Part shown: positions 4,523-43,695 of the stretch, in pieces | Numbering within the stretch: the stretch's first letter is position 1 | Layout of the letters: each line of letters begins with the position of its first letter | The notes under the pieces: generated by a model | Told to the model about the DNA's origin: nothing | What the model saw: the letters and a program-made list of their open reading frames with translations, nothing else | Database searches by the model: none | Made by a program: the position numbers and the translations under genes | From: a virus | Reading direction: 5' to 3' (one strand) | DNA: 64,000 nt | Virus record (IMG/VR): IMGVR_UViG_3300037467_002824 | Span: 1-64,000 of that record

Positions 4523-5443
4523 ATGAGCTACAAGACCGAAACCACGAATGTCAGCGCCCAGTACCTGAACGCCGCGTTCGTCCGGAAGATCACGGACGAG
4601 GGCAAGATCAAGGAAGCGGCCGTCGAAGGTACCGCTTTCATTCGCGAGAAGGTTCGTCAGGAATCCTTCGCGCGTGAGATCATCGTTCCCGTCGGTCTCC
4701 AGGACGACGAGATCGATCGTGACGTCAACCACGACCAGCCGAAGAAGATCGTGGAGAAGGAACCGGCGTCGATCGCGACGTACGTGCCCTTCACCGGGTC
4801 GGGCCCGCGTGTCTGGTTCCGTGGCCCGCGCTACGAGATCCGCTTCGCCAAGGTGGAGAGCCAGCGCTTCACCAAGTCGAAGTTCGAGCTGATGACGTAC
4901 CAGAACGACATCCGCAAGATCCTCAGCGACAACAGCGTGAAGGACATGGCGGACGTCGAGGATACCCAGTTCCTCAACACGATCAAGGCGATCATCGCCC
5001 TGAACCCCGCTCAGGTGACGCCGGCCCCTGCGTTCAACAGCGTGGCCTGGACGAAGGCGGAGCAGGCGATGGCAGCCCGCCGCCGCCCGATCGGCAAGTT
5101 CCTCATGACGAAGGAACTCTTCTACGAGGCGCAGAACCTCCCGGCGTCGGCAGTCGGTTACCAGGTCGCTGGTGATCACTACCACGACGGCATCGAGAAG
5201 GAAGAGCGCCTCTGGGGTATGCCGGTCGTGACCACGGTGAAGAGTGACATCTTCCAGTCGGTCCTCGGCAGCTCGCGCACCGCGTTCGTCTTCTCGCCGG
5301 AGAACTTCCTCGGGAACTTCTTCCTGCTCCAGGACGCGACGCTCTTCATCAAGCAGGAGGCGGACATCATCACGTTCTACTCCTACGAGTCGATCGGCCT
5401 CGGCATCGGCAACCGCCTGTCGGTTCAGCAGATCAACTTCTGA
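4523..5443 (+). CDS. Major capsid protein (HK97-fold type)
   Basis: 306 aa. Size, composition and position after protease/scaffold/decoration genes fit HK97-fold capsid proteins. GGGAG RBS. Followed by a strong hairpin terminator (5468-5508). Confidence 0.7.
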   Translation: MSYKTETTNVSAQYLNAAFVRKITDEGKIKEAAVEGTAFIREKVRQESFAREIIVPVGLQDDEIDRDVNHDQPKKIVEKEPASIATYVPFTGSGPRVWFRGPRYEIRFAKVESQRFTKSKFELMTYQNDIRKILSDNSVKDMADVEDTQFLNTIKAIIALNPAQVTPAPAFNSVAWTKAEQAMAARRRPIGKFLMTKELFYEAQNLPASAVGYQVAGDHYHDGIEKEERLWGMPVVTTVKSDIFQSVLGSSRTAFVFSPENFLGNFFLLQDATLFIKQEADIITFYSYESIGLGIGNRLSVQQINF

Positions 5444-12331: not shown

Positions 12332-12345
12332 TAATCTTGGGGAGC

Positions 12346-13881
12346 ATGTCTCCCCCACCTCCCGCCCGAAACGGCCGGTTCTCCGGCCGCCCCGCCAACC
12401 TCGGACCCGAGGCCACTGGCGACCCTCTCTCCCCCGATTCTCAAAACGTCCGGCGAGGTTCCACCTGGAACGAGCCGCCGCGCGCCATCCGCGAACGCGG
12501 CCGGATCACCTCCGTAGACGCCAATCGGCGAGCGTACCGGGTCATGACCCTGGGCGGGCGGAGTCTGACCTGCCTGCGTATCCAGGAATCTCCCCAGGAC
12601 CACGCGATGCTGCCGATCGGCACCGACGTGCGGATCGACTGGAGCCTGGGTCTCCCGTACATCGACGGAGTCCTTCCGTCCGAAGGTGACGTTCCGGATT
12701 CGACCCAGAATCCGGTCGACAACCCGACCGGCACCGAGGGTTTCGGGGTGAATGACCCGGTTCTCGACCGTAACTACGGCGCCAACGGCCGCGCGCCAGG
12801 CGCCCCGACTGACGTCCTCCCGGGAGACTTCGTCCGACGCAGCCCGGACGGAGCGACCGTCGCAGCAATGTCAGGGAAAACCGCTCTTCTTCACGGCGGG
12901 CACCTCGCCCAGCTCCTTCTCTTCGGCAACGAAGACAAGGCAGAGCTGATCGCAGGGATCTTCCGGCTGATCACCTGGATGGGCGAATCGAAGATCACCA
13001 ACGAAGGTGGCCGGACCTCCTTCATCTGGAGGGGCGGCGCCAACCAGCTGTCCGAAACGGGTTCAGATGAAGAACGCTACACGATCCACCTGGATGTGGG
13101 AGCAACGGGTAACCTGGTTAACTTCCGCATCACTACGATCGACCAGCAGACCCTTTTCCAGGCGCACATCACGGGCGAAGGCCACGTAGAGATCTTCGGG
13201 ATCGCGGGGCTGGACTCGACCTTCACGAATCGATCAGGCTCCGGCCACGTCCAGCGTTTCGACGGCGATGTCTCTCGTACATTCCAGGGTGCGGTGACGG
13301 AGACTGTGACTGGAAATCGTTCGACCACAGTCGAATCCGACGCGACCGAGGAATTTTCGAACAACCTGTCGCAACGGGTCGGGAACGACTGGAACGTCCG
13401 AGCCAACCGGAACGCTGAACTCAGCGCCGGTGGCGGCATGTCCCGTCGCGTCGTGGGCGACGACAACAAGCAGGTCGGCGGCAAAGAACTGAAGACGATT
13501 CAAGGCGATGCCGAAGACACCATCCGAGGGCACAAGCACTCGTATGCCGACGGCGTCAACGAGGTCAAGTCGGTCAACGACAAGGTCATGGTGACCTGTC
13601 AGAACGGCAATTTCGAGTGTGATGCCGGCGGCAACCTCGCGCGTTTCACCTGCCAAGCTATGGAAGTTGCTGGGAATACGAACAACGCGGTCCTCTACAA
13701 CGAACTGAACCAGATCCTCAGCGAGTTCATCTCGAACTACGTCGGTCACACTCATCAAGTCTCTACAGCAGGTTCTGCGACCGCTCAGACCGGTCTCGCA
13801 AGCCCGCCTATCGATTCCACTTCTGGTCTCAGCGCACGTCTTCCTCAGATGCAGTCCCAGAAATTGAAGTTGGGCGGCTGA
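12346..13881 (+). CDS. Baseplate central spike, gpV/gp5/VgrG-like
   Basis: 511 aa from ATG 12346 (GGGGAG RBS; track start 12337 is TTG). OB-fold pattern GRITSVDANRRAYRV..LPIGTDVRIDWSLGLPYIDGVLP, a beta-helix-like middle, and a C-terminal HxH apex motif NYVGHTHQVS. Confidence 0.55.
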   Translation: MSPPPPARNGRFSGRPANLGPEATGDPLSPDSQNVRRGSTWNEPPRAIRERGRITSVDANRRAYRVMTLGGRSLTCLRIQESPQDHAMLPIGTDVRIDWSLGLPYIDGVLPSEGDVPDSTQNPVDNPTGTEGFGVNDPVLDRNYGANGRAPGAPTDVLPGDFVRRSPDGATVAAMSGKTALLHGGHLAQLLLFGNEDKAELIAGIFRLITWMGESKITNEGGRTSFIWRGGANQLSETGSDEERYTIHLDVGATGNLVNFRITTIDQQTLFQAHITGEGHVEIFGIAGLDSTFTNRSGSGHVQRFDGDVSRTFQGAVTETVTGNRSTTVESDATEEFSNNLSQRVGNDWNVRANRNAELSAGGGMSRRVVGDDNKQVGGKELKTIQGDAEDTIRGHKHSYADGVNEVKSVNDKVMVTCQNGNFECDAGGNLARFTCQAMEVAGNTNNAVLYNELNQILSEFISNYVGHTHQVSTAGSATAQTGLASPPIDSTSGLSARLPQMQSQKLKLGG

Positions 13882-19431: not shown

Positions 19432-19773
19432 TCAGTTGCCCGAACCGCCGCTTGTCGTCGGGCTGATGACGAGCGGCGGGGCAACGAGTTCCGGCGAAGC
19501 GACGCCGGCGCGGTTGATCTGATTCAACGCCCCGTGCAGAACCCCGGGCTGTGTCATGGCACTCGGATCTTCCCCGTACTGACGGTTGGCTTCGAATGCC
19601 CGATCGATCGCGTCATTGAGATTCAGCTGGCGATACTCGCCGTCGAAGTCCGGATCAGGGGTAGCTCCGTGCGCTACCCCTTCATCCTCTGCCCTTTTGG
19701 CGTGAAACCGCTTCCGGGCCGCGATCGTTCCTTCGCGGACCTTCTCTCGCAGAAACGGGAACACGCGCGGCAT
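19432..19773 (-). CDS. Hypothetical protein (last gene of inverted block)
   Basis: 113 aa. Its stop abuts the stop of 19045..19431 on TGATCA (19429-19434). Confidence 0.5.
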   Translation of the reverse strand: MPRVFPFLREKVREGTIAARKRFHAKRAEDEGVAHGATPDPDFDGEYRQLNLNDAIDRAFEANRQYGEDPSAMTQPGVLHGALNQINRAGVASPELVAPPLVISPTTSGGSGN

Positions 19774-20354
19774 TACTTATGCGCGCCCGGCAACGCTCCC
19801 CAGAGACCCTGGCGGACGCTCTGACCGGCGTTCCCTGCGGCTTGCCGTGCTCGCTGCATGCCATTTGAAACGGCCTGCTGTGCGGGCGCCACGGCCGACC
19901 CTACGGCCGCGCGGGCCTTGGCCATCGGACCGCTCAGGAAGTGAGGTGCGTTCGCGAACTGCTCGCGCGTCAGCTGCCCCACCGCACCGGGCGAAACACC
20001 GCGATTCTTGAGCGCGCCGGCGAACTGCTGAACGTGCCCCTGATAGGCCTTCTGTCCGAGGTAGCCGCCTGCCCCGCCAACAGCCGCGCCACCTGCAGCA
20101 CCAACGCCTGCGCCGACGAGGCCGCGCTTCGCGCGCTGCATCATGGACTGATCCGAGGGACCGCTCAACGCGCCACCCGCGGCGCCAACGCCTGCTCCGA
20201 TGAGTGCGCCACGGCCTGCGAACGAGCGAGCCACCTGTCCCGGCAGCGACAAGAGCGGGGCAGCGTCCTTCTCGAAGTCCGCCCACGTCTCGTAGCCGAA
20301 CTCCTGCGCCGCCTTGTCCATTCCCTGCTTGTACGCGAGATCCTTCATGGTCAC
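19773..20354 (-). CDS. AY..G-leader glycine-zipper protein
   Basis: 193 aa. N-terminus MTMKDLAYKQGMDKAAQEFG. Zippers GALIGAGVGAAGGALSG and LVGAGVGAAGGAAVGGAGGYLG. GTGA overlap with the upstream stop. Confidence 0.55.
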   Translation of the reverse strand: MTMKDLAYKQGMDKAAQEFGYETWADFEKDAAPLLSLPGQVARSFAGRGALIGAGVGAAGGALSGPSDQSMMQRAKRGLVGAGVGAAGGAAVGGAGGYLGQKAYQGHVQQFAGALKNRGVSPGAVGQLTREQFANAPHFLSGPMAKARAAVGSAVAPAQQAVSNGMQRARQAAGNAGQSVRQGLWGALPGAHK

Positions 20355-21118
20355 CGTCCGAAGGCCTGTCCGGCCTGCTGTGCGAGGTCCTTGCCTGCAA
20401 TTGTAGCGCGTCCGAGGGCGCCTCCGCGCAGGTATCCGAGCAAGCCGCCCCCGACGGCACCGACACCAGCTCCGAGCGTCCCGCCCATGATCATCCGGCG
20501 TTCGTGCTCCTTGTCGTCAGCGTTGTCCGGGGTAGCCAGATGTCCGATTCCAACGCCGGCGGCGGCTCCGAGAAGACCGCCCCCGCCAACCCACTTCGGA
20601 ACCATCCCGGAACGGATGTTGGCAGCGACTTGTTCCGCCTCGGGCCCGTGAAGAACGTCTTTCGACAAGTGAACAGCCGCTTCCTGATGCGTCGGGATGT
20701 TCCCCATCTCGAAACGCTTCACGACGAATTCGCCGGGGCCGCTGCCTACCTGAATCACTTCGTGAGACGGCATGCCGTGATTCGCTTCGTTCAAGAACCA
20801 CTGCGCCTTCTCGGGCACGTGCGGTTCCGCGCTGAACACGCCGCGGATCTTGTCGAGAAGGCCTCCTCCAAGCGGCTTCAGCTTATCGACTTCTTTCATC
20901 ACGCCGCGCGAAGAGTCTTCGTGGAGCGACCGGATCTTCTCTGCCATGTCCGGCATCTCGCGGGAGAGTTCTTCCATATTGGAGAGGAACTCGGAACGGG
21001 GGATGCGGTTCAGGTCTTCGGCGAGCGACGAGCCGTGCTTCACGAATTCGCGCAAGCTAGCGTATCCTGCTTCAGCGAAGGCGCGTTCGATCCCCTGGTC
21101 ATAGGCGAGGTTTCGCAT
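20351..21118 (-). CDS. AY..G-leader protein with C-terminal glycine zipper
   Basis: 255 aa. N-terminus MRNLAYDQGIERAFAEAG. C-terminal GGGGLLGAAAGVGIG..GGTLGAGVGAVGGGLLGYLRGG. Confidence 0.55.
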   Translation of the reverse strand: MRNLAYDQGIERAFAEAGYASLREFVKHGSSLAEDLNRIPRSEFLSNMEELSREMPDMAEKIRSLHEDSSRGVMKEVDKLKPLGGGLLDKIRGVFSAEPHVPEKAQWFLNEANHGMPSHEVIQVGSGPGEFVVKRFEMGNIPTHQEAAVHLSKDVLHGPEAEQVAANIRSGMVPKWVGGGGLLGAAAGVGIGHLATPDNADDKEHERRMIMGGTLGAGVGAVGGGLLGYLRGGALGRATIAGKDLAQQAGQAFGR

Positions 21119-21124
21119 GGTGCC

Positions 21125-21616
21125 TCAGTAGTGATGGAAGCGAGACACGCTTCGGTAGCCTGAACCAAGCGAGCCGTAGCACGCTTCCATGTTCAGCTGG
21201 GTCTTGATGCCGCGTGCCATCCCCATGAACTCTTCGTCGCACATCTTGGCGATCTGGTTGTAGAACGCCTGCTTGTCGTCGACGCCGATCGGCGCAACGT
21301 CTCCGTCCTGTGCCGTAACCTGGTTACGAAGCTGACGGAACGCCTCCGACTTCATGAGAAAGGCCGCCGTACCCACCAGGAGTACCCACGGGTTGATCGA
21401 GTTCTGGTCGAGCAACGTGATCGGAGTGATCGCGTTGTACCTCGCCACCGTGAACTTGATGGCGCGATTCAGATCTGCGTCGGAATACTCGGGCCCGTCC
21501 AAAAGAACGTTGAGGACGCCCGTATTCGGGATCTGTCCGGCCACATCACGCAAGAAGCCGCGGACGTCATCCGTGGTAACGACGGGCGTGGTGACGGGGG
21601 TTCCGGTTACAGGCAT
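21125..21616 (-). CDS. Hypothetical structural-block protein
   Basis: 163 aa. Thr/Val/Pro-rich N-terminus. No motif. Confidence 0.5.
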   Translation of the reverse strand: MPVTGTPVTTPVVTTDDVRGFLRDVAGQIPNTGVLNVLLDGPEYSDADLNRAIKFTVARYNAITPITLLDQNSINPWVLLVGTAAFLMKSEAFRQLRNQVTAQDGDVAPIGVDDKQAFYNQIAKMCDEEFMGMARGIKTQLNMEACYGSLGSGYRSVSRFHHY

Positions 21617-21628
21617 CGGGATCTCCTA

Positions 21629-22414
21629 TCAGACGATTGCCGAAAAGCGTGCTTCGCGCTGGACGTTCACACGAGCCATGCCGGTCAAGGGCGAGGCCGG
21701 TACTACGAGGAATGCCTGACGCGGCAAGAGGAGGAACGACGCGTCGGCGAACGACACGAACGGTTGCCCGACGTTCACTGCGCCACTGAAGATCGTCGCG
21801 GTCTCGGCAGCGATCGGCTCCAGTCCGGCGTCGAGGTTCGCGATCTGGAAAGACACATTGACGGCGCCCACCATGCCTACGAACTGACACTCCATCTGAC
21901 GGATCACGAGCGGATCGGTCTGATCGAAGTAGAAAAGCCCTCCAGCTCCCGCCGTGGTGAACTTGAGCTGCGGCGCGACGATCGTCGGATCGGCGCCGCC
22001 TGCAAGAGGCGTTGCGGCAGCCGCCGCCACGACGCTCGTGCCACCGGCGTGAGCAACCACCGGCAACTGCTGCGTCGGATTCGACGAGTTGCGGAAGTTG
22101 TTGATCGCGTTCGCAACCTCATCAGCCGTAGCGAGGATGGCTCCTGCGCTGCGCCGAAGAATCACTCGAACGGAGTTCGCGCTGAGCAACTGCACGGTCG
22201 TGACTGGCACGACATTCGGCGCTCCCGAATCGAACTGTTCCACCGTGACACTGTTGCCGTCCAAGCCGTACGCACGTGCGCGGTAGCGGACCAACGCGCC
22301 GCCTCCGCCTACGTCCAATGACGCCCGCCCGACGTACGAGCCGTTGTACGTGCCCGGCCCCGTGAGGAGCTGCTGCATGGAGACAACGCTGCTGAGATCG
22401 AAAGAAACTGCCAT
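21629..22414 (-). CDS. Structural protein, paralogue of 31943..32698
   Basis: 261 aa. Shares with 31943..32698 the Ala/Gly module (..ILATADEVANAINNF..PLAGGADPTIVAPQLKF..GGLFYFDQT) and overall collinearity. Confidence 0.55.
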   Translation of the reverse strand: MAVSFDLSSVVSMQQLLTGPGTYNGSYVGRASLDVGGGGALVRYRARAYGLDGNSVTVEQFDSGAPNVVPVTTVQLLSANSVRVILRRSAGAILATADEVANAINNFRNSSNPTQQLPVVAHAGGTSVVAAAAATPLAGGADPTIVAPQLKFTTAGAGGLFYFDQTDPLVIRQMECQFVGMVGAVNVSFQIANLDAGLEPIAAETATIFSGAVNVGQPFVSFADASFLLLPRQAFLVVPASPLTGMARVNVQREARFSAIV

Positions 22415-26753: not shown

Positions 26754-26883
26754 ACGGTATCTGTAGACGTTCTGCACACTATCGAATTCGGGGCGCTGGG
26801 TATTTCGAAAGAAACGAAAGATCGACGTCCAGTAGCGCGACAATCTCACTCCAGATTCGGTACGCCGATGGCTATCATAGGCC

Positions 26884-27922: not shown

Positions 27923-28504
27923 ATGCCCCGAATGGACCTCGTTTTCTTCGACACCGAAACCACCGGTCTCCTTCCGGACAATCCCAAAGATCCTGTTCCG
28001 GGAATCATCGAGATCGCCTGTATCCGTACCACCCCGGACGCGAGCAGAATCATCGACGAATTCGAAACGAAGATCGTTCTCGAACGGGACCGTTATCCCG
28101 TCTCCGAGGACGCTTTGCGCATCAACGGCTACTCCGACGAGAAGTGGGCCGGCGCCATGAAACTCGAAGACGCCATGTTCCAGGTCGTGCAGCGCATGCC
28201 GTTCGGCGTGCAGCTCGCTGGCCACAACACCAGTTTCGACATCGGCATGCTGAAGGCCAGCATCCGTCGGGCCGGAATGGCCGTTCCGAAGTTCTACTAC
28301 CACTACGTGGACACGATGTCCCTCGGCCAGCCGCTCGTGGCCAAGGGCCATGTGGACAACGTGAAACTCGTTACCCTCTCGAAGTTCTTCGGCGTTCCCC
28401 ACGAAGCAGCCCACACCGCCATGGGCGACGTCAAGGCGACGCTCGGCGTGTATCGTGCGATCCTGAACTACTTCCCGCCCGGCCCCGAACCGACCGCCAC
28501 CTGA
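27923..28504 (+). CDS. DEDDh 3'-5' exonuclease (DnaQ-like)
   Basis: 193 aa. Exo I VFFDTETTGL, Exo II LAGHNTSFDIGML, Exo III HTAMGDVKAT. Confidence 0.85.
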   Translation: MPRMDLVFFDTETTGLLPDNPKDPVPGIIEIACIRTTPDASRIIDEFETKIVLERDRYPVSEDALRINGYSDEKWAGAMKLEDAMFQVVQRMPFGVQLAGHNTSFDIGMLKASIRRAGMAVPKFYYHYVDTMSLGQPLVAKGHVDNVKLVTLSKFFGVPHEAAHTAMGDVKATLGVYRAILNYFPPGPEPTAT

Positions 28505-28774: not shown

Positions 28775-28789
28775 GGCCGGCTATCATTG
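28775..28789 (+). promoter_or_regulatory. Conserved 15-mer GGCCGGCTATCATTG with a -10-like box
   Basis: TATCAT (28782-28787) lies 7 nt upstream of ATG 28795. The identical 15-mer occurs on the minus strand at 43681-43695, also 7 nt from an ATG. Confidence 0.35.
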
Positions 28790-28794
28790 AGGCG

Positions 28795-29670
28795 ATGAAC
28801 CCGGCACAGTCCGCATACAGCCTCGGGTTGGCGGTCGCTCTCGAAGAGGCGGGTTTGCTCAAGCACGCCCTCGCGATCAACCCGCGTCTGATGGGCGCCG
28901 GCATCGGTGCAGCTGCCGGCGCAGGCGTGGGCGCCGCAGCGGACTCTGGCAATCGTTGGCGCGGCGCGTTCCTCGGCGGTGTGGGTGGCGGCGCCCTGGG
29001 CTACGGGGCCGGTCACATGATGAGCCGTCCGGGCGCTGCGCCGCACGTTCCAACGCCGGCCGCTGCTCCACACCCCGGTCCGGTGGCCAATGCGATGACC
29101 GGTGCCCCGACCCTGGCCGCACACGCTGCCCCCGCTCCGCGAGCGTCACATCCGCCCTTGCCCTCGGCGCCTCCGGCCAATGCCTTCTCGACAATCACCC
29201 GCATGACCCCGCAGCAGCTCGCTGTCGAGCGAGCGCAAGGCATGGTCGGCCATGGCGGAGGCATTCCCACGAATGTCCACGAAGAACTCTCCCGCGCGCT
29301 GAACCCGCAGAAGGTTCAGCAGATGCACGCAGGGATCGGCCAGATGCTCAACGACGAGAAGGTGCTGAGCCAGAAGTGGCACACGCCAGGGTCGTTCCAT
29401 CTTCAGAGTCACCCGGATCTGCACGGCGCGATCATGCAGCATGTCGTAAGCCCCGAAGGCGTCTACAGCGGCAAGGCTCACGGTGCGCTCGCCTCGATGA
29501 TGGAAGCCGCGAAGGGCGAAGGCATCAACCTCACCCCGCATCACATCGACGCAATGGCACAGCACCCGATGTACCGGGAGCTGGCGGGCCTCGGCGGCGC
29601 CGCGCCGGTAGTTACCCCTTCGATCCGCGACATGGCCACCCCCGTTGCACGCCGGCGAATCGCAGCATGA
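28795..29670 (+). CDS. AY..G-leader glycine-zipper protein
   Basis: 291 aa. Leader MNPAQSAYSLGLAVALEEAG, zipper MGAGIGAAAGAGVGAAADSG..FLGGVGGGALGYGAG, a Pro/Ala-rich linker and a C-terminal globular domain. Confidence 0.55.
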   Translation: MNPAQSAYSLGLAVALEEAGLLKHALAINPRLMGAGIGAAAGAGVGAAADSGNRWRGAFLGGVGGGALGYGAGHMMSRPGAAPHVPTPAAAPHPGPVANAMTGAPTLAAHAAPAPRASHPPLPSAPPANAFSTITRMTPQQLAVERAQGMVGHGGGIPTNVHEELSRALNPQKVQQMHAGIGQMLNDEKVLSQKWHTPGSFHLQSHPDLHGAIMQHVVSPEGVYSGKAHGALASMMEAAKGEGINLTPHHIDAMAQHPMYRELAGLGGAAPVVTPSIRDMATPVARRRIAA

Positions 29671-30122
29671 GTTACGAAGACAACCTCCGGCTGGCTTACG
29701 GCTACGGCGTGAAGCTCGCACTCGCCGAGAAGAAGTTCGGCCCCTTCACGTTCAAAATCGATCGCCCCAAGGGCTACGTGAAGACGTGGAAGCGCCCGGA
29801 TGGCAGCGAGAAGAAGTACACGTACCCTGTGGACTACGGGTACCTGATCCGCCACACCGGCGAAGACGGGGAAGGCCTCGACTTCTTCGTTGGCGACGAC
29901 CCCTCGGCGCCCGTCGAGAGCTTCATGAAGCTCAAGCCCGGCCCCGGTGGCAAGCTGATCGAGGACGAGACGAAGTTCATGATCGGTCTGACCGAAAGTG
30001 AACGGAAGAAGGTCCTCGCTCTGTACGACAGCGGTGAGTTGAAAAACCACCGTGTCTACAAGACCGTCTACGATCTCGTCGACCGACTCAAAGACTTCAA
30101 GAACAAGAAGAGGACCACGTGA
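29667..30122 (+). CDS. AY..G-leader protein with inorganic-pyrophosphatase-like core
   Basis: 151 aa from ATG 29667 (ATGA overlap). Leader MSYEDNLRLAYGYGVKLALAEKKFG. YPVDYGYLIRHTGEDGEGLDFFVG parallels the family I PPase block YP.NYG(Y/F)I..T...DGDP.D.LV. Confidence 0.5.
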   Translation: MSYEDNLRLAYGYGVKLALAEKKFGPFTFKIDRPKGYVKTWKRPDGSEKKYTYPVDYGYLIRHTGEDGEGLDFFVGDDPSAPVESFMKLKPGPGGKLIEDETKFMIGLTESERKKVLALYDSGELKNHRVYKTVYDLVDRLKDFKNKKRTT

Positions 30123-30397
30123 ACTACCTGCAGCTCGCCTATGCCCAGGGCGTCAAGATCGCCGCCGACGAACTCGGACTCTCGTTCGAGGACATCATGA
30201 AGATGGCCGCATCGCCGCCCCCGATCCCCTCGGTCGTGGCCGCCACCTCGCGCCTCAAGGCCCTCGCCCAGGGCGCTGCGAAGCCGATGGCACAGGCTGC
30301 CACGCAGGTCGGCAAGCAGGTCCCGGTGGGCGCCGGCCGCTCCTTCCAGAGCGCCTTCACGCCCGACGTCCTCGCGCGTCTCGGCGGCGGAGTCTGA
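30119..30397 (+). CDS. AY..G-leader small protein
   Basis: 92 aa. GTGA overlap with the upstream stop. N-terminus (M)NYLQLAYAQGVKIAADELG. Ala/Pro-rich. Confidence 0.5.
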   Translation: MNYLQLAYAQGVKIAADELGLSFEDIMKMAASPPPIPSVVAATSRLKALAQGAAKPMAQAATQVGKQVPVGAGRSFQSAFTPDVLARLGGGV

Positions 30398-31942: not shown

Positions 31943-32698
31943 ATGATTCTGTTCGATACGGGTTCGACCATCTGCCTTCAGCAAACGGTGAGCGGGACCG
32001 GTGTCTACGACGGCACTCAGGTCGGCTACGCACGCTTGACCTACTCCAACGGAGGAGTGGTCTTCACCGTCCGTGCAACTCAGGTTGGGACCGCCGGCAA
32101 CGCGCTCAAGCTCGCACTCGTGGCACCGACGGACTCGACACAGACCGTCGCCGGATTCGATGGAACGACCGTGACGGTTTTCCTGAAGCGAACCGCCGGA
32201 GTCATCTCCGCCACCGCTGCGGAAGTCGTAGCCGCGGTCAATGCGCTCTTCTCGTCGAAGCCTTCATCCGATCTCAAAATGACCGCCGCGGTCGGAACCG
32301 CGGGTACGATCCCTGCGGTTCTCGCTGCAACGAGTCTCGCCGGCGGGATCGATCCCACCGTCGTGAACCCGGCCCTGCTGAAGTTCGCTCAGGCCACGAA
32401 CTCGAACGGCGGCATGTTCTACTTCGAACAGACCAGGGCATGGGTCATCAGCTCGGTAACCGCGCGCTTCTCAGCGGCCGGATTGCCGATCAAAATCGCC
32501 ATCGTAAACATCGACAACGCGCTTAACCCGGTTACGAACGAAGAAGTCGCCGTTTGGGAACCGACGACGACCGACAATTACGCGGCGTTGGAAGACATGA
32601 AGACGCCGGTGATGCCAGGTCAGGCGTTGACCATCACTGCTACCGCTCAAGGCATGGTGCGCGTAACTGCGCGGGCCGAATCACCCACCGCGTTCTGA
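31943..32698 (+). CDS. Structural protein, paralogue of 21629..22414
   Basis: 251 aa. ..VISATAAEVVAAVNALF..SLAGGIDPTVVNPALLKF..GGMFYFEQT is collinear with the minus-strand ORF 21629..22414. Confidence 0.55.
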   Translation: MILFDTGSTICLQQTVSGTGVYDGTQVGYARLTYSNGGVVFTVRATQVGTAGNALKLALVAPTDSTQTVAGFDGTTVTVFLKRTAGVISATAAEVVAAVNALFSSKPSSDLKMTAAVGTAGTIPAVLAATSLAGGIDPTVVNPALLKFAQATNSNGGMFYFEQTRAWVISSVTARFSAAGLPIKIAIVNIDNALNPVTNEEVAVWEPTTTDNYAALEDMKTPVMPGQALTITATAQGMVRVTARAESPTAF

Positions 32699-35608: not shown

Positions 35609-35680
35609 TCCAGGGTAGCTCAGCGGCAGAGCGATCGGCTGTTAACCGAATGGTCGTGGGTTCGATCCCCACCCCTGGAG
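35609..35680 (+). tRNA. tRNA-Asn (GTT)
   Basis: Hand fold: acceptor TCCAGGG/CCCTGGA, D stem GCTC/GAGC, anticodon loop CTGTTAA, T arm GTGGG-TTCGATC-CCCAC. CCA is encoded. Confidence 0.85.
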
Positions 35681-35712
35681 CCATCACCAAACGCGCCGGC
35701 GCCTCCAACGCC

Positions 35713-35784
35713 GGATCGTTGGCGTAGCGGCAGCGCACTCGCCTTTTAAGCGATGAGGCGCGGGTTCGATCCCCGCACGATCCA
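35713..35784 (+). tRNA. tRNA-Lys (TTT)
   Basis: Acceptor GGATCGT/ACGATCC, loop CTTTTAA, T arm GCGGG-TTCGATC-CCCGC. CCA is encoded. Confidence 0.8.
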
Positions 35785-35860
35785 CCATGAACACTCACAC
35801 GATGCGAGAACGCGAACAGGATTCCGAGCGGGCATAAGGCCCGCCTCGTTGAGTCCGTTC

Positions 35861-35932
35861 GCCCGCATCGTCTAGTGGCAGGACAGGCCGACTTTCAATC
35901 GGCAGAGCTGGGTTCGATTCCCAGTGCGGGCG
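35861..35932 (+). tRNA. tRNA-Glu (TTC)
   Basis: Acceptor GCCCGCA/TGCGGGC, D stem GTCT/GGAC, loop CTTTCAA, 4-nt variable loop, T arm CTGGG-TTCGATT-CCCAG. One extra nt lies between the D and anticodon stems. CCA is encoded. Confidence 0.75.
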
Positions 35933-35936
35933 CCAC

Positions 35937-36007
35937 GCCTTCGCGCATCGGGTATGCACCACCGGCTGTCTACCGGTCGGTCTGGGGTTCGAGTCCCCTC
36001 GGAGGCG
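35937..36007 (+). tRNA. tRNA-Asp (GTC)-like, atypical D arm
   Basis: Acceptor GCCTTCG/CGGAGGC, loop CTGTCTA (T at position 37), T arm TGGGG-TTCGAGT-CCCCT. The D region is only 17 nt, lacks a canonical U8 and has a GCAT/ATGC mini-stem. Confidence 0.5.
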
Positions 36008-36011
36008 CTAC

Positions 36012-36084
36012 GCGCGCATCGTCTATCGGTCAGGACAGCTGGTTCTCAACTAGCGAAGAGCGGGTTCGATTCCCCTTGCGCGCA
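36012..36084 (+). tRNA. tRNA-Glu (CTC)
   Basis: Acceptor GCGCGCA/TGCGCGC, D stem GTCT/GGAC, loop TTCTCAA, T arm GCGGG-TTCGATT-CCCCT (one mismatch). Confidence 0.7.
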
Positions 36085-36236
36085 TCGCCTTCACGACTAG
36101 GATTCAAGCAGCCATGAAGCTCTCACACACGACCAAGCTGACGCGGTGCCTCGGAGGGGCACTTGCGAGCGGTCGTGTGGGCACGCGACGGCGCTGACAG
36201 CCAGGCGATACGAAGCCTGGCAGCCAGTCCGATTAC

Positions 36237-36311
36237 GTGCCCGTAGCTCAATGGATTAGCAGCGCTGCGCTACGAACGCAGAGGTTGGGGGTTCGAGTCC
36301 CTCCGGGTACG
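36237..36311 (+). tRNA. tRNA-Arg (ACG)
   Basis: Acceptor GTGCCCG/CGGGTAC, loop CTACGAA, T arm GGGGG-TTCGAGT-CCCTC. CCA is encoded. Confidence 0.8.
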
Positions 36312-36315
36312 CCAT

Positions 36316-36387
36316 GCGCTTGTAGCTCAATGGAAGAGCACCGCCCTCCGAAGGCGGGGGCCGCAGGTTCGAGTCCTGTCAGGCGCG
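36316..36387 (+). tRNA. tRNA-Arg (CCG)
   Basis: Acceptor GCGCTTG/CAGGCGC, D stem GCTC/GAGC, loop CTCCGAA, T arm GCAGG-TTCGAGT-CCTGT. Confidence 0.8.
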
Positions 36388-36392
36388 CTACC

Positions 36393-36405
36393 TGAACCGG
36401 GTTCA
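36393..36405. repeat. Palindrome TGAACCGGGTTCA in a tRNA spacer
   Basis: Perfect 13-nt palindrome between tRNA-Arg(CCG) and tRNA-Gly(GCC). The identical 13-mer occurs at 45160-45172. Confidence 0.8.
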
Positions 36406-36410
36406 GATTC

Positions 36411-36482
36411 GCGGGTGTCGCTCAGTGGTAGAGCACCAGCATGCCACGCTGGAATTCGAGGGTTCGATTCCCTTCACCCGCT
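36411..36482 (+). tRNA. tRNA-Gly (GCC)
   Basis: Acceptor GCGGGTG/CACCCGC, D stem GCTC/GAGC, loop ATGCCAC, T arm GAGGG-TTCGATT-CCCTT, discriminator T. Confidence 0.8.
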
Positions 36483-36486
36483 CTTC

Positions 36487-36557
36487 GCGGACGTGGGTCA
36501 TAGGCTGATCTCTGGGTTTCCACCCCAGCTAAGCGAGTTCGAGTCTCGCCGTCCGCT
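36487..36557 (+). tRNA. tRNA-Gly (TCC)
   Basis: Acceptor GCGGACG/CGTCCGC, D stem GGTC/GATC, loop TTTCCAC, T arm GCGAG-TTCGAGT-CTCGC. Confidence 0.8.
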
Positions 36558-36573
36558 CTAAGTAAAGTTTCAC

Positions 36574-36602
36574 TTGCGTATATGTAAAGCCTCCTTTACA
36601 TT
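36574..36602 (+). promoter_or_regulatory. Internal promoter-like element of the tRNA island
   Basis: TTGCGT-N17-TACATT in an AT-rich spacer. It overlaps an 8-bp hairpin ATGTAAAG-CCTC-CTTTACAT. Confidence 0.4.
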
Positions 36603-36607
36603 TCGAT

Positions 36608-36684
36608 TGCGGCGTAGGGAAGTCAGGTCGTTCCCGCTGGCCTCATAAGCCGGAGATCGCAGGTTCAAATCCTGCCGCACGCAA
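36608..36684 (+). tRNA. tRNA with CAT anticodon (Met or Ile2), bulged acceptor stem
   Basis: 5' TGCGGCG pairs with 3' CGC(A)CGCA only if one A is bulged. D stem GGGA/TCCC with an 11-nt loop, anticodon loop CTCATAA, T arm GCAGG-TTCAAAT-CCTGC. Confidence 0.5.
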
Positions 36685-36798
36685 CCAAGCCAATGAACGC
36701 GTACATCGACATCACCCCGTGCCTATCGCTGGAGCAGTTGCTTAGCGGCGCCGGGGCGTTGTTGCGTGTGTAAACACACGACCCCGGCAGCAAGCTTC

Positions 36799-36880
36799 GG
36801 CCGGGTGGCGTAATGGAAGCCGCGCTGCGTTCAGACCGCAGTGTCCTTGTGACGTAGGGGTTCGACTCCCCTCCCGGCCA
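36799..36880 (+). tRNA. tRNA-Leu (CAG)
   Basis: Acceptor GGCCGGG/CCCGGCC, loop TTCAGAC, long variable arm, T arm AGGGG-TTCGACT-CCCCT. Confidence 0.8.
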
Positions 36881-36884
36881 CTCT

Positions 36885-36967
36885 CCGTGAGTGGCGTAAT
36901 GGCAGCCGCGCCAGCCTGAGTAGCTGGTGCCCGAAAGGGCGTGCAGGTTCGACTCCTGTCTCACGGA
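36885..36967 (+). tRNA. tRNA-Leu (GAG)
   Basis: Acceptor CCGTGAG/CTCACGG, loop CTGAGTA, variable arm GCCC-GAAA-GGGC, T arm GCAGG-TTCGACT-CCTGT. Confidence 0.75.
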
Positions 36968-36971
36968 CTAC

Positions 36972-37052
36972 GGCCTCGTGGTGAAACGGAAGACGCGCCC
37001 GGTTCAAACCCGGGTACCTACGGGTGTGAGAGTTCGAATCTCTCCGGGGCCA
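36972..37052 (+). tRNA. tRNA-Leu (CAA)
   Basis: Acceptor GGCCTCG/CGGGGCC, loop TTCAAAC, long variable arm, T arm GAGAG-TTCGAAT-CTCTC. Confidence 0.8.
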
Positions 37053-37069
37053 CTAAATTCACTGCCGAC

Positions 37070-37098
37070 TTGCATTTCGTTTTCACCCCTTCTATACT
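37070..37098 (+). promoter_or_regulatory. Internal sigma70-like promoter of the tRNA island
   Basis: TTGCAT-N17-TATACT, 31 nt upstream of tRNA-Ser(GCT). This is the best consensus match in the window. Confidence 0.55.
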
Positions 37099-37128
37099 GA
37101 CCCTCGTGAACCTCATGGATCACAATTT

Positions 37129-37215
37129 GGAGCATTGCCAGAGCGGCCGATTGGGCACGCCTGCTAAGCGTGCGGTGTCGCAAGGCACCCCTGCGTTCGA
37201 ATCGCAGATGCTCCG
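37129..37215 (+). tRNA. tRNA-Ser (GCT)
   Basis: Acceptor GGAGCAT/ATGCTCC, loop CTGCTAA, long variable arm, T arm CTGCG-TTCGAAT-CGCAG. Confidence 0.8.
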
Positions 37216-37323
37216 CTCGTGGTGTGTCATTACGACGACCACGAGCAGTCCGAAGCAGTTCAAGTCATCGCGCTCCTGAATCACTAGCTGTCCAAGACAT
37301 CGCCGTCTCGGACGGCGAATTCT

Positions 37324-37410
37324 GGAGCGGTGTCAGAGAGTGGTTTATTCCGGCGGTCTCGAAAATCGTCACACCTTCGGGTGTCGTGGGTTCGAATCCC
37401 ACCCGCTCCT
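37324..37410 (+). tRNA. tRNA-Ser (CGA)
   Basis: Acceptor GGAGCGG/CCGCTCC, loop CTCGAAA, variable arm CACACC-TTCG-GGTGTC, T arm GTGGG-TTCGAAT-CCCAC. CCA is encoded. Confidence 0.8.
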
Positions 37411-37493
37411 CCAGGAATACGATGAACACGTTGAGCAACACGATCCTGCGTCTGAAGCCCGGCCCCGAGGGAGAACCTCGGGAGCTGTTGCTT

Positions 37494-37566
37494 CCGGTCG
37501 TAGCTCAACTGGCAGAGCAAGCCCCTCTTAAGGGCGAGGTTGCGGGATCGTTGCCCGCCGACCGGA
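37494..37566 (+). tRNA. tRNA-Lys (CTT), unusual T loop
   Basis: Acceptor CCGGTCG/CGACCGG, D stem GCTC/GAGC, loop CTCTTAA, T arm GCGGG-ATCGTTG-CCCGC (A54/T58 instead of T54/A58). Confidence 0.65.
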
Positions 37567-37575
37567 CTGATGAAC

Positions 37576-37647
37576 GCGCGCGTGGTCTAATGGCTGGGCA
37601 CCTGGTTTACACCCAGGCTCATGGAGGTTCGATCCCTTCCGCGCGTA
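37576..37647 (+). tRNA. tRNA-Val (TAC)
   Basis: Acceptor GCGCGCG/CGCGCGT (G1.T72 wobble), D stem GTCT/GGGC, loop TTTACAC, T arm GGAGG-TTCGATC-CCTTC. Confidence 0.75.
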
Positions 37648-37685
37648 CCGGCAATCGAATGTGCACGCGAGTCGTCACAGTCGTC

Positions 37686-37752
37686 GCCGGTGTGAAGGTC
37701 AAGTCGATCTCTCATAAGGATCTGGCGGCGGGTTCGAGTCCCGCCACCGGCA
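37686..37752 (+). tRNA. tRNA-like with CAT anticodon and a reduced D arm
   Basis: Acceptor GCCGGTG/CACCGGC, loop CTCATAA, T arm GCGGG-TTCGAGT-CCCGC, CCA encoded. Only 13 nt (TGAAGGTCAAGTC) lie between the acceptor and anticodon stems. Total length 67 nt. Confidence 0.45.
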
Positions 37753-37787
37753 CCAATCGAAGGCCGAGAGAGCTGAATTGAAGCTCT

Positions 37788-37860
37788 CTCGGTGTAGCTC
37801 ACAAGGACGAGCAGCGGCGTTCTAATCCGCAGGAAGTCGGTTCGAATCCGACCACCGAGA
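37788..37860 (+). tRNA. tRNA-Arg (TCT)
   Basis: Acceptor CTCGGTG/CACCGAG, D stem GCTC/GAGC, loop GTTCTAA, T arm GTCGG-TTCGAAT-CCGAC. CCA is encoded. Confidence 0.75.
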
Positions 37861-37940
37861 CCAAGAAGATGAACCTCACGCGCACCACCACTACGACCGC
37901 CACTCGAACGCGAACAACGCGTTCGGTGGCAGCTGTATGT

Positions 37941-38013
37941 GCTGGTGTAGCTCGATTGGAAGAGCACTCGCCTTGTAAGCGAGAGACAGCGGGTTCGAAT
38001 CCCGTCACCAGCT
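37941..38013 (+). tRNA. tRNA-Thr (TGT)
   Basis: Acceptor GCTGGTG/CACCAGC, D stem GCTC/GAGC, loop CTTGTAA, T arm GCGGG-TTCGAAT-CCCGT. CCA is encoded. Confidence 0.85.
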
Positions 38014-38018
38014 CCAAC

Positions 38019-38091
38019 GCTGGTGAAGCACGTTTGGACGTGCACCCGCATGGTAAGCGGGAGGCAGTGGGTTCGAATCCCATCACCAGCT
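38019..38091 (+). tRNA. tRNA-Thr (GGT)
   Basis: Acceptor GCTGGTG/CACCAGC, D stem GCAC/GTGC, loop ATGGTAA, T arm GTGGG-TTCGAAT-CCCAT. CCA is encoded. Confidence 0.85.
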
Positions 38092-38096
38092 CCAAC

Positions 38097-38169
38097 GCCG
38101 GTGAGGCTCATGTGGATGAGCGCTGCACTCGTAACGCAGACTCAACGGGTTCGACTCCCGTCACCGGCT
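38097..38169 (+). tRNA. tRNA-Thr (CGT)
   Basis: Acceptor GCCGGTG/CACCGGC, D stem GCTC/GAGC, loop CTCGTAA, T arm ACGGG-TTCGACT-CCCGT. CCA is encoded. Confidence 0.8.
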
Positions 38170-38241
38170 CCAAGACCATGATGAACAAGAGCACGCCCCT
38201 CATTACCAACGCCTGCGAGTCGCTCGCAGGCAGCGGTGTAT

Positions 38242-38313
38242 GCGTGGGTAGCTCAATGGTAGAGCACTCGACCGATAATCGAGAGACGATGGGTTCGATC
38301 CCCGCCCCACGTA
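38242..38313 (+). tRNA. tRNA-Ile (GAT), C at position 33
   Basis: Acceptor GCGTGGG/CCCACGT (G1.T72), D stem GCTC/GAGC, loop CCGATAA, T arm ATGGG-TTCGATC-CCCGC (mismatched). CCA is encoded. Confidence 0.65.
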
Positions 38314-38357
38314 CCATGGGAGTTCTGGATCACTTTACCGCCGGCGCCTTCGCGTCT

Positions 38358-38431
38358 GCCGGTGAAGCTGACATGGTGACTAGCGCTCCCCTGAAGAGGG
38401 AGAGGAGTCCGTTCGATTCGGACCTCCGGCA
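38358..38431 (+). tRNA. tRNA-Phe (GAA)
   Basis: Acceptor GCCGGTG/CTCCGGC (one T.T mismatch), loop CTGAAGA, T arm GTCCG-TTCGATT-CGGAC. Confidence 0.7.
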
Positions 38432-38470
38432 CCTCGGTCCTCTTTGGCGACCCTTCGACGTATCCCGCAT

Positions 38471-38539
38471 GCGGGTACGCGCTGGGCGCCGTGCGAACTC
38501 CAAATCCGCTACGCGTCGGTTCGATTCCGACTACCCGTG
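38471..38539 (+). tRNA. tRNA-Trp (CCA), short D region
   Basis: Acceptor GCGGGTA/TACCCGT (G1.T72), loop CTCCAAA, T arm GTCGG-TTCGATT-CCGAC, CCA encoded. The D region is only 15 nt. Total length 69 nt. Confidence 0.55.
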
Positions 38540-38588
38540 CCATCATCTGCAGCAACCCGAGCAGCGCCCGTAACTGGGTCCACTGTAT

Positions 38589-38661
38589 TCGGGGATAGCT
38601 CAATTGGCAGAGCGGCGGCCTCTGACGTCGTTGGTTGAAGGTTCGACTCCTTCTCCCCGAG
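38589..38661 (+). tRNA. tRNA-Gln (CTG)
   Basis: Acceptor TCGGGGA/TCCCCGA (U1-A72, as in bacterial tRNA-Gln), D stem GCTC/GAGC, loop CTCTGAC, T arm GAAGG-TTCGACT-CCTTC. Confidence 0.8.
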
Positions 38662-38666
38662 CTAAT

Positions 38667-38739
38667 TCGGGAGTCGTCTAATTGGCAGGACACCCGCCTT
38701 TGAAGCGGGCCGGTGCGGGTTCGAGTCCCTCCTCCCGAG
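38667..38739 (+). tRNA. tRNA-Gln (TTG)
   Basis: Acceptor TCGGGAG/CTCCCGA, D stem GTCT/GGAC, loop CTTTGAA, T arm GCGGG-TTCGAGT-CCCTC. CCA is encoded. Confidence 0.8.
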
Positions 38740-38743
38740 CCAC

Positions 38744-38771
38744 TTGTATATCGTCTGAACTGGGTTACACT
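38744..38771 (+). promoter_or_regulatory. Internal promoter-like element of the tRNA island
   Basis: TTGTAT-N16-TACACT directly after tRNA-Gln(TTG). It lies 12 nt upstream of a 35-codon ORF (38784-38891) and 157 nt upstream of tRNA-Pro. Confidence 0.4.
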
Positions 38772-38928
38772 CTGGAAGTCATCATGAAGCGCTCGCACCA
38801 CATCGCAGCCCTGTTCGCCGCCGCCAAGGCGTGCGACGCGGCGGTGTATCGAGCGCCCGGCGCCCCGCAGCCTACCGTCGCTGGTCTCTGAGCTTCGCTC
38901 AGACCCAGCTGCAAACGACGGATGATTG

Positions 38929-39002
38929 CTGGGCGTAGCGAAGACAGGTATCGCGCTGCTTTCGGGAAGCAGAGATCGCAGGTTCGAGTCCTGCCGCCCA
39001 GA
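38929..39002 (+). tRNA. tRNA-Pro (CGG)
   Basis: Acceptor CTGGGCG/CGCCCAG, D stem GCGA/TCGC, loop TTCGGGA, T arm GCAGG-TTCGAGT-CCTGC. CCA is encoded. Confidence 0.85.
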
Positions 39003-39006
39003 CCAT

Positions 39007-39078
39007 CGGAGAGTAGCCGAATGGTTAGGCGCCTGATTTGGGATCAGGAAAGCGCAGGTTCGATTCCTGTCTCTCCGA
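39007..39078 (+). tRNA. tRNA-Pro (TGG)
   Basis: Acceptor CGGAGAG/CTCTCCG, loop TTTGGGA, T arm GCAGG-TTCGATT-CCTGT. Confidence 0.8.
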
Positions 39079-39087
39079 CTAGTACAC

Positions 39088-39158
39088 GGGCTCGTAGCTC
39101 AATGGGAGAGCTGCCGGTTTGCACCCGGCCGATGGGGGTTCGATTCCTCTCGGGTCCA
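39088..39158 (+). tRNA. tRNA-Ala (TGC)
   Basis: Acceptor GGGCTCG/CGGGTCC with the G3.T70 Ala identity pair, D stem GCTC/GAGC, loop TTTGCAC, T arm GGGGG-TTCGATT-CCTCT. Confidence 0.8.
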
Positions 39159-39168
39159 CTGAATTCTC

Positions 39169-39196
39169 TTGCATCCTGTTTGAAACACGCTAGGCT
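39169..39196 (+). promoter_or_regulatory. Internal promoter-like element of the tRNA island
   Basis: TTGCAT-N16-TAGGCT, 76 nt upstream of tRNA-Tyr. Confidence 0.35.
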
Positions 39197-39271
39197 ATTC
39201 ACGTGATCCTCACTCATTGTCATCGCCATTCGTATTGAGCGCCTCGGGCTGGCGGCCCGATAGACGCATAC

Positions 39272-39354
39272 GTGGCGGTGTACCCGAGTGGGATGGGCTC
39301 TGACTGTAGATCAGAGGGCTTTTGCCAGAGCAGGTTCGATTCCTGCCCGCCACA
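39272..39354 (+). tRNA. tRNA-Tyr (GTA)
   Basis: Acceptor GTGGCGG/CCGCCAC, loop CTGTAGA, long variable arm, T arm GCAGG-TTCGATT-CCTGC. Confidence 0.8.
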
Positions 39355-39356
39355 CT

Positions 39357-43286: not shown

Positions 43287-43675
43287 GTGTGGTCGTGTTC
43301 GCAGTGCATCTTACCGTGCTCGCAGCACTCTTCACAAGATTCCAGGCCGTGTTCGCAGACGTCGTGGTCGGCGACCTTCGGCTCCGGCGGCTTGCTCTTC
43401 GCCTCGTGCTCTGCCTTGAAGCGCGCCAGGAGAGACTTGTGGTAACGATCCGCGTAGTCGCGAGCCTTCGCCACGTAATCCGGCTCCACGTCAGCTCGCT
43501 TCTGAGCGTACTCCCGCCCCTTCGCTCCGAAGCGCGCCGGCTGCCCGTCCTTCACGTCGTGATGGAGCGGACGCTCTACCGGAACGCCGGGTCTTTCCAC
43601 CCGCATTCCTGCGTCGTCCAGAGCGAGCTTCACGCCCTGTTCATAAGCCATCCGGAAGAGGGTGGTTGCGTCCAT
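43283..43675 (-). CDS. AY..G-leader protein with Cys/His metal-binding tail
   Basis: 130 aa. Leader MDATTLFRMAYEQGVKLALDDAG. C-terminal HDVCEHGLESCEECCEHGKMHCEHDH. TATCAT box 7 nt upstream of the ATG. Confidence 0.5.
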   Translation of the reverse strand: MDATTLFRMAYEQGVKLALDDAGMRVERPGVPVERPLHHDVKDGQPARFGAKGREYAQKRADVEPDYVAKARDYADRYHKSLLARFKAEHEAKSKPPEPKVADHDVCEHGLESCEECCEHGKMHCEHDHT

Positions 43676-43680
43676 ACCCG

Positions 43681-43695
43681 CAATGATAGCCGGCC
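43681..43695 (-). promoter_or_regulatory. Conserved 15-mer GGCCGGCTATCATTG with a -10-like box
   Basis: Minus-strand copy of the 28775-28789 element. TATCAT lies 7 nt upstream of ATG 43675. Confidence 0.35.

Follow-up and report, generated by a model that had tools for sequence, protein, structure and literature searches.

A shared N-terminal leader on six otherwise unrelated proteins of an uncultured myovirus, a candidate virion-loading tag

In T-even phages, the diverse internal proteins share nothing beyond a capsid-targeting sequence (CTS) that is conserved (PMC3012670), and in phage P1 the first 30 residues of DarB suffice to target a reporter to the capsid (PMC9024508). The head proteins gp45 and gp225 of phage SPN3US carry N-terminal propeptides of 20 and 24 residues that are cut after A/S/G-x-E (PMC10052503), and the PF18823 InPase domain occurs in phage polyvalent proteins for which packaging and injection are likely, sometimes in fusion with the portal (Iyer et al., 2017, PMC5512222). 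Here we describe a leader peptide that stands at the N-terminus of six open reading frames (ORFs) in a 64,000-nucleotide stretch of phage DNA, positions 1 to 64,000 of IMG/VR record IMGVR_UViG_3300037467_002824 (hereafter the window). The leader is a real module, conserved at the peptide level and carried by unrelated cargo proteins, and we consider the possibility that it serves as a signal for loading these proteins into the virion.

The arrangement recalls that of T4 (IPI, IPII, IPIII, Alt and others), where a short N-terminal peptide is likewise the sole common part of diverse, fast-evolving proteins (PMC3012670). T4 also resembles the window in that enzymes and small basic proteins are among the cargoes, in the conserved Glu close to the tag's end, and in a prohead protease gene within the head module. 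The tag described here differs in being longer (16-21 aa to the acidic residue), in its A-Y-x2-G-phi-x2-A core and in a P3 position that is not uniformly L or I, and the candidate protease encoded at 322-2313 is not detectable as Pfam S77 (T4 gp21-type) or S78. Compared by eye, the leader consensus is also unlike the T4 CTS, whose sequence we take to be MKTYQEFIAE.

In P1, as proposed here, an N-terminal signal of at most 30 residues loads protein into a myovirus head, in that case a large anti-restriction protein or a reporter (PMC9024508), and the InPase cargo in the window weakly matches a DarB-like PHROG. Whereas the Dar proteins are without a common consensus (PMC9024508), an explicit one is found in the six proteins of the window. 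The short propeptides of giant-phage head proteins (SPN3US, phiKZ-like phages) resemble the leader in their length of 20-24 residues; the prohead protease removes them after Glu (PMC10052503), and A-x-E is aligned in 2/6 leaders. They differ in that a common sequence has not been reported for those of SPN3US, and in that L or F stands at P3 in 4/6 leaders here. The InPase-bearing protein of the window is a bona fide member of PF18823, with relatives that lie at the N-terminus of, or inside, proteins of 500-1850 aa. Unlike these, it stands alone at 151 aa, and its native helix bears the AY..G signature that is common to five non-InPase proteins.

Encapsulin cargo-loading peptides (see PMC11202242) offer a further parallel, as short docking peptides that bring unrelated cargo enzymes to the interior of an HK97-fold shell. 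In contrast to the leader, they are usually C-terminal and uncleaved, they serve a nanocompartment of cells, not a capsid filled with DNA, and they have no sequence similarity to it.

A peptide module on six otherwise unrelated proteins

A preliminary description of the window had reported six ORFs with a common N-terminal motif, and all six are present where it placed them, with the N-termini that it gave (Table 1). In the six-frame translation of the whole 64 kb, the regular expression AY..G[VIML]..A has exactly six matches, all at these N-termini, and in 6/6 ORFs the motif sits 4-10 residues past the start codon. Shuffling the residues gave an average of 0.15 matches and a maximum of 2 over 300 trials, against the 6 observed. 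A hidden Markov model (HMM) of the leader, run over the 1161 ORFs of the window, scored the six members at 37-43 bits and the next best ORF at 6 bits. When each leader was left out of the model in turn, 5/6 ranked right after the five training members with E values from 1.7e-6 (the g30119 leader) to 0.016, the weakest and most divergent being the leader of g28795 (rank 8, E = 1.9). The shuffles, the HMM and the leave-one-out scores together exclude a chance origin of the motif.

The six tagged ORFs are coding-like in their G+C content at third codon positions (0.72-0.89, the value for g29667 being taken from a longer ORF that encloses it; the window as a whole has 61.7% GC). In an alignment of the leader DNA, conservation is confined to the first two codon positions of the invariant A, Y, G and A. 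The third positions of the invariant residues vary, with 2-4 different codons for each, and mean column identity is 48%. Since the third codon positions vary, selection acts on the leader peptide and not on a nucleic-acid element, and this synonymous variation rules out an element at the DNA or RNA level as the cause of the conservation.

What follows the leaders differs from protein to protein, as had been claimed: three proteins are of a glycine-zipper or Gly-rich kind and the others are an InPase, a Cys/His-rich protein and an Ala/Pro-rich protein. The leader itself had not been recognised as a described family, and residues 1-25 indeed gave no significant profile match in Pfam-A or PHROGs; we found no description of the tag in the literature searched.

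Read directly from the sequences, the leader comprises about 18-25 residues with the consensus [L/M]-A-Y-x-Q-G-[VILM]-x-x-A-[LAF]-x-[E/D]-x-G. Numbered from the invariant Ala, its conserved positions are A0, Y1, G4, [VILM]5, A8, [LAF]9, [ED]11, a small or hydrophobic residue at 12, and G13 (G15 in the InPase protein). On a helical wheel (100 degrees per residue), positions 0, 4, 8 and 11 lie at 0-80 degrees and positions 1, 5, 9 and 12 at 100-180 degrees, while the variable, mostly charged positions 2, 3, 6, 7 and 10 fall at 200-340 degrees. All of the conservation thus lies on one helical face, which is the pattern of a helix docking onto a common partner. This face carries an Ala-x3-Gly-x3-Ala stripe of small residues, a classic surface for tight helix-helix packing. 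In g30119, g20354 and g21118, the resemblance extends for about 10 further residues after the Gly, as G-[YL]-x-x-[FWL]-x-[DE]-[FI]-x-K. We also considered a Sec, Tat or lipoprotein signal and rejected it, as the leader has no hydrophobic core, twin-Arg or lipobox Cys and is acidic, with a charged residue every 2-4 positions.

The InPase cargo and the reach of the tag

The protein encoded by g29667 matches the PF18823 InPase family in Pfam at 2.1e-10 (41 bits, against a gathering cutoff of 26.8). Its AlphaFold2 (AF2) model has an overall predicted local distance difference test (pLDDT) score of 82.5, with 53-56 for residues 1-20 versus about 90 for the InPase domain, and places the leader outside the confident InPase fold. 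This fold matches phage InPase proteins (E = 4e-10), a portal-fusion protein, a "tail protein", a "mega protein" and polyvalent proteins; matches to type I pyrophosphatases of the PDB, which have an OB fold, are weak (E about 1e-3, template-modelling score about 0.45). The PHROG matches of g29667 are to virion structural and minor head proteins, besides the weak DarB-like one. By analogy with the polyvalent proteins, the family of this cargo points to a predicted packaging in the virion.

Comparison with relatives shows that the tag is largely modular. The InPase orthologues P0002, P0003 and P0004 (71-76% identical) keep it, it is degenerate in P0005, and the homologues P0007-P0011 (48-54% identical) start at "MALKTKKLGPF", without the AY..G part. 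In L001, a related contig (55.8 kb) whose neighbouring genes are 30-65% identical to those of the window, the InPase is untagged. Two tagged proteins of L001 come directly after a pair of 261-aa and 163-aa proteins, at a position syntenic to g21118/g20354: one has 58 aa and starts MNAYTLGVKLAKTE, and the other has 215 aa, starts MKASDLGEKIAKT and has a Gly-rich C-terminus. The leader had been described as detachable, and it does behave as a module across the InPase homologues and in L001, but in g29667 it is not wholly so, because its last 8 or so residues (ALAEKKFG) are native to the N-terminal helix of InPase.

Among 36 metagenomic loci, InPase often forms a module, N-terminal or internal, of proteins of 500-1850 aa. 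The helices that precede it in these loci, for instance VASYFAMKLAFEEKIWGPF, IASVHALKVAFETKRWGPF and AKIHALKVALDTKRWGPF, align with LAYGYGVKLALAEKKFGPF of g29667. A helix of the form phi-A-x3-small-phi-K-phi-A-phi-x-E/T-K precedes the InPase domains, N-terminal or internal, of large polyvalent proteins in many unrelated metagenomic phages, and, as judged from these alignments, the whole tag is related to it, by descent or convergence. In many metagenomic relatives InPase is one module of polyvalent-type proteins of 900-1850 aa, always behind a conserved helix whose form extends to phi-A-x3-small-phi-K-phi-A-phi-x-E/T-K-x-W-G (contigs L014, 3868-9438; L042, 1409-6289; L021, 51-2873; L025, 9170-11896).

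As far as seen, the tag itself occurs only within this small clade. The preliminary description had proposed a profile search of metagenomic proteomes, and the leader profile, run against 1.84 billion representatives, did recover two proteins of the window and one InPase orthologue at E <= 1e-3, but nothing else; a motif of about 20 residues is too short to reach significance among so many sequences. With an alignment of 10 leaders and a word-indexed search, in which 8 candidates were scored, the 58-aa protein of L001 came up at E = 0.97. A search with full-length g28795 returned the query alone, its candidate list being swamped by low-complexity words, and searches of IMG/VR for related loci with g21118 and with the SNF2 helicase yielded no relatives. 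Degenerate DNA patterns for the leader, which would recover only about half of the window's own leaders, had 3 matches in IMG/VR and 16 in GTDB genomes, and we set these aside as chance since each is internal or lies in a spurious ORF. The additional 16 kb or so of the source genome that flank the window (L050, L052) hold no further copies of the tag, and an all-against-all BLAST of ORF N-termini for shared leaders was too noisy in DNA of 62% GC. Because searches with short motifs have low power and the DNA patterns are half-blind, absence elsewhere is weak evidence.

The phage and the surroundings of the tagged genes

The window is part of a myovirus genome of about 191 kb and 62% GC that has been assembled repeatedly from metagenomes as circularly permuted contigs; the phage is known from metagenomes alone and is uncultured. 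Judged by its proteins, it is distantly related to the Salmonella "orphan" phage Arash, its nearest cultured relative. In tblastn searches Arash shares six core genes with the window, with two further weak matches. The major capsid protein is also 37% identical to those of three Vibrio phages of about 187 kb, and no nucleotide-level relatives were found among 50,697 phage records. A dense tRNA array explains a stretch of the window without protein-coding ORFs; Arash, too, is rich in tRNAs. A protein with RNA polymerase Rpb1 domain 5 (PF04998, RNA_pol_Rpb1_5) is encoded at L050 1-1668, some 8-10 kb upstream of where the window begins and close to the head genes, and in Arash large "RNA polymerase beta" genes adjoin the portal. 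This domain and the arrangement in Arash suggest a phage-encoded multisubunit RNA polymerase, possibly associated with the virion.

The gene at 322-2313 adjoins the capsid genes and had been described as an S78 prohead protease; a scaffold-like protein is encoded at 2360-2968. A prohead protease it probably is, from its matches, but of an unassigned family, as there is no Pfam S78 match. The protein matches PHROG 18299 (head maturation protease, 1.2e-7), and its tblastn matches include Arash structural protein gp222, Vibrio D69, Bacillus phage G gp19, the Yoloswag "head maturation protease", and Erwinia jumbo phage proteins that carry a head maturation or prohead protease annotation. Pfam returned nothing for the domain region (E <= 10), the whole protein (E <= 0.01) or five homologues (E <= 1), and no PDB sequence match was found. 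The family alignment has conserved His and Ser positions and a zinc-ribbon-like Cys/His insert. This insert, an invariant CSxC...CxH, is common to Arash gp222, Vibrio D69, Bacillus phage G gp19, the N-terminus of Myrna gp97 (a protein with a tape-measure annotation) and the Yoloswag protease. At 663 aa the protein is unusually long for a protease-like protein, and its family is without a Pfam model or a solved structure detectable by sequence.

The tagged genes lie in two translationally coupled arrays and one separate locus (Table 1). The glycine-zipper Pfam matches of g28795 and g20354 are under the gathering score; g21118 has no glycine-zipper Pfam match, its Gly-rich segments being read from the sequence, and its single-sequence AF2 model (pLDDT 39) is uninformative. 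The C-terminal part of g28795 is conserved in the related contig L004, where g30119 is missing from the syntenic position. Neither g30119 nor g43675 has a family match in Pfam or PHROGs.

About 290 nt upstream of the g28795-g29667-g30119 operon lies a gene for a DnaQ/RNase T-type 3'-5' exonuclease (PF00929, 8e-19; 27923-28504, plus strand), with an 82-aa ORF in between. The 11-mer GGCTATCATWG has copies that end 3-5 nt before the ATG of gene 26884, of g28795 and of g43675, and the upstream DNA that g28795 and g43675 have in common amounts to about 20 nt. Its TATCAT core stands at a distance of 5-7 nt from the ATG; were this a -10 box, the mRNAs would begin at the ATG or beside it and so be leaderless. 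The 11-mer may mark a class of co-regulated genes, among them a gene pair whose matches to XhlA and holin are weak.

The 163-aa and 261-aa neighbours of g21118/g20354 gave nothing significant in Pfam, PHROGs or PDB sequence profiles. The order of 261-aa gene, 163-aa gene and leader genes is kept in L001, the identities to L001 being 65% for the 163-aa protein and 30% for the 261-aa protein. The window also holds a paralogous pair of proteins of about 250-260 aa, at 21629-22414 (minus strand) and 31943-32698 (plus strand), with no family or PDB match; their relatives lie in L001 (5490-6296) and in the contig L006 (2768-3514 and 6641-7423). One of these paralogues always precedes the highly conserved 163-aa protein (21125-21616 in the window; 65% identical in L001).

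Table 1. Positions of the tagged genes, their leaders and other features in the window
Feature	Coordinates	Strand	Remarks
g28795, 291 aa	28795-29670	+	Leader, glycine zipper aa 33-78, Pro/Ala-rich linker, C-terminal globular part
Leader of g28795, MNPAQSAYSLGLAVALEEAG	28795-28854	+	
g29667, 151 aa	29667-30122	+	Leader and PF18823 InPase; ATGA start/stop overlap with g28795
Leader of g29667, MSYEDNLRLAYGYGVKLALAEKKFG	29667-29741	+	
g30119, 92 aa, GTG start	30119-30397	+	Small Ala/Pro-rich protein; GTGA overlap with g29667
Leader of g30119, (M)NYLQLAYAQGVKIAADELG	30119-30178	+	
g20354, 193 aa, GTG start	19773-20354	-	Leader and two glycine-zipper segments; 4-nt overlap with g21118
Leader of g20354, MTMKDLAYKQGMDKAAQEFG	20295-20354	-	
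g21118, 255 aa	20351-21118	-	Leader, helical/mixed middle, two C-terminal Gly-rich segments
Leader of g21118, MRNLAYDQGIERAFAEAG	21065-21118	-	
g43675, 130 aa	43283-43675	-	Leader, charged region, C-terminal Cys/His cluster
Leader of g43675, MDATTLFRMAYEQGVKLALDDAG	43607-43675	-	
Conserved genes, 163 aa and 261 aa, no assigned function	21125-22414	-	Directly upstream of g21118/g20354, same strand
11-mer GGCTATCATWG (GGCTATCATTG)	26870-26880; 28779-28789; 43681-43691	+; +; -	3 copies vs 0.00 expected
Probable prohead (head-maturation) protease, 663 aa	322-2313	+	Protease-like part about aa 110-300
Major capsid protein	4523-5443	+	39% identity over 97% of length to the Arash major capsid protein
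Tail sheath	8145-10967		
Baseplate hub-like gene	12337-13881		
29 tRNA genes	35609-39355	+	Dense array

Virion loading and its alternatives

We favour the reading that the leader is a virion-loading peptide comparable to the T4 CTS, and give this an even chance of being right. In this reading, a portable amphipathic helix would dock heterogeneous cargo proteins onto the assembling virion, most likely destined for the prohead interior, through a receptor that they share, for example the scaffold or core, the protease or the portal; delivery of the cargo to the host, together with the DNA, would follow. In a second and less certain step, the prohead protease would cut the tag after the conserved acidic residue and leave mostly basic mature proteins. 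We infer loading, receptor and cleavage by analogy with the described systems; cleavage in particular, though plausible, we hold with less confidence. With a hypothetical cut after the acidic residue, the leaders are acidic (isoelectric point (pI) 4.2-6.0) and the mature parts are basic in 4/6 proteins (pI 9.3-11.0); the internal proteins of T4 are basic. The preliminary description had reported a hydrophobic-x-E in five of the six leaders. The acidic residue is indeed fixed at +11 (Glu in 5/6, Asp in 1/6), but P3 varies, and the series L/L/A/A/F/L conforms throughout neither to L/I-x-E, the rule in T4, nor to A/S/G-x-E, the rule in SPN3US.

Several observations weigh against loading and cleavage. 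Besides the heterogeneous P3 and the Asp at P1 in one member, the tagged 215-aa protein of L001 has Arg at the putative P1. The N-terminal helix of InPase is also found inside polyvalent proteins of 900-1850 aa, and in P0008 a leader-like motif, AAFLYGVKLSE, lies C-terminal to the InPase. The glycine-zipper, membrane-type segments in three of the cargoes would also fit a membrane role outside the virion, and the neighbours of g43675 are genes of a nucleotide-metabolism type, not structural genes. Finally, Arash, for which "structural protein" annotations based on mass spectrometry exist, has no copy of the tag in its whole genome, and tblastn of the window proteins found no homologues of the six tagged proteins in it.

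The membrane-type segments bring up a different use for a docking helix, namely oligomerisation in a complex other than the head: a membrane assembly for lysis, superinfection exclusion or an ejection/entry conduit, or a structure of the tail lumen or baseplate, with the leader neither loading heads nor being cleaved. To such a complex one could ascribe the glycine-zipper Pfam matches of two cargoes and the Gly-rich segments read in a third, the position of g21118 and g20354 at the end of the tail/baseplate block, co-directional with the two conserved genes, and the Ala-x3-Gly-x3-Ala stripe as a helix-helix packing motif, and the 11-mer of g28795 and g43675 also precedes the gene pair with the weak XhlA and holin matches. 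We nevertheless hold it to be unlikely, given that a soluble InPase and a small Cys/His-rich protein would be odd members of a membrane complex, that the leader is acidic and polar rather than membrane-like, and that the InPase family indicates virion packaging. A further proposal is that the leader is a regulatory tag read by a machine outside the virion, as a degron, for chaperone recruitment or for targeting to an intracellular phage compartment. The leader is short, N-terminal and common to unrelated proteins, the N-terminus of T4 gp23 reportedly directs proteins to GroEL, and the RNA polymerase large-subunit-like gene (L050) recalls jumbo phages with elaborate intracellular organisation. 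Yet the leader has no similarity to described degrons or signals, features of Sec, Tat or lipoprotein signals are not visible in it, and to our knowledge import into phage nuclei does not use linear N-terminal tags; we regard this proposal as very unlikely.

It could also be that the shared N-terminus has no common function and is a by-product of gene starts (promoter, translation start and about 20 codons) that were copied by illegitimate recombination, perhaps from the native InPase helix. The tagged genes do stand in tandem, translationally coupled arrays, g28795 and g43675 do share DNA upstream of their starts, and the InPase subfamily of many phages has a related native helix (such as VASYFAMKLAFEEKIWGPF and AKIHALKVALDTKRWGPF). 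Against this, the identity of the leader DNA is low, the invariant residues are kept by way of synonymous codons, conservation is limited to one helical face, and the tag persists in the relative L001, where identity in the neighbouring gene has dropped to only 65%. Together these points speak for purifying selection on the peptide and against a by-product, to which we give scant credence. A bolder extension of virion loading is that the tag and the pre-InPase helix are one docking element, a widespread and unrecognised signal for packaging polyvalent and anti-defence proteins that was copied in this phage onto five stand-alone cargoes. We consider this quite unlikely; if it were true, it would open the way to predicting the injected proteins of uncultured phages by a simple rule on sequence.

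Should the leader be a loading peptide, as we favour, it would be a CTS-like signal with a new consensus in a new, uncultured lineage of myoviruses. Proteins injected by phages are often anti-defence or host-takeover factors, and in uncultured phages their recognition is close to impossible, given their fast evolution and lack of homologues. A loading tag would allow them to be flagged straight from sequence, with six candidates in this window. The T4 CTS and the P1 DarB signal have already been used to load foreign proteins into capsids, and the tag described here is a possible handle for doing so in a new phage lineage. It also links a stand-alone InPase to the polyvalent proteins, and hints at how such domains reach virions.

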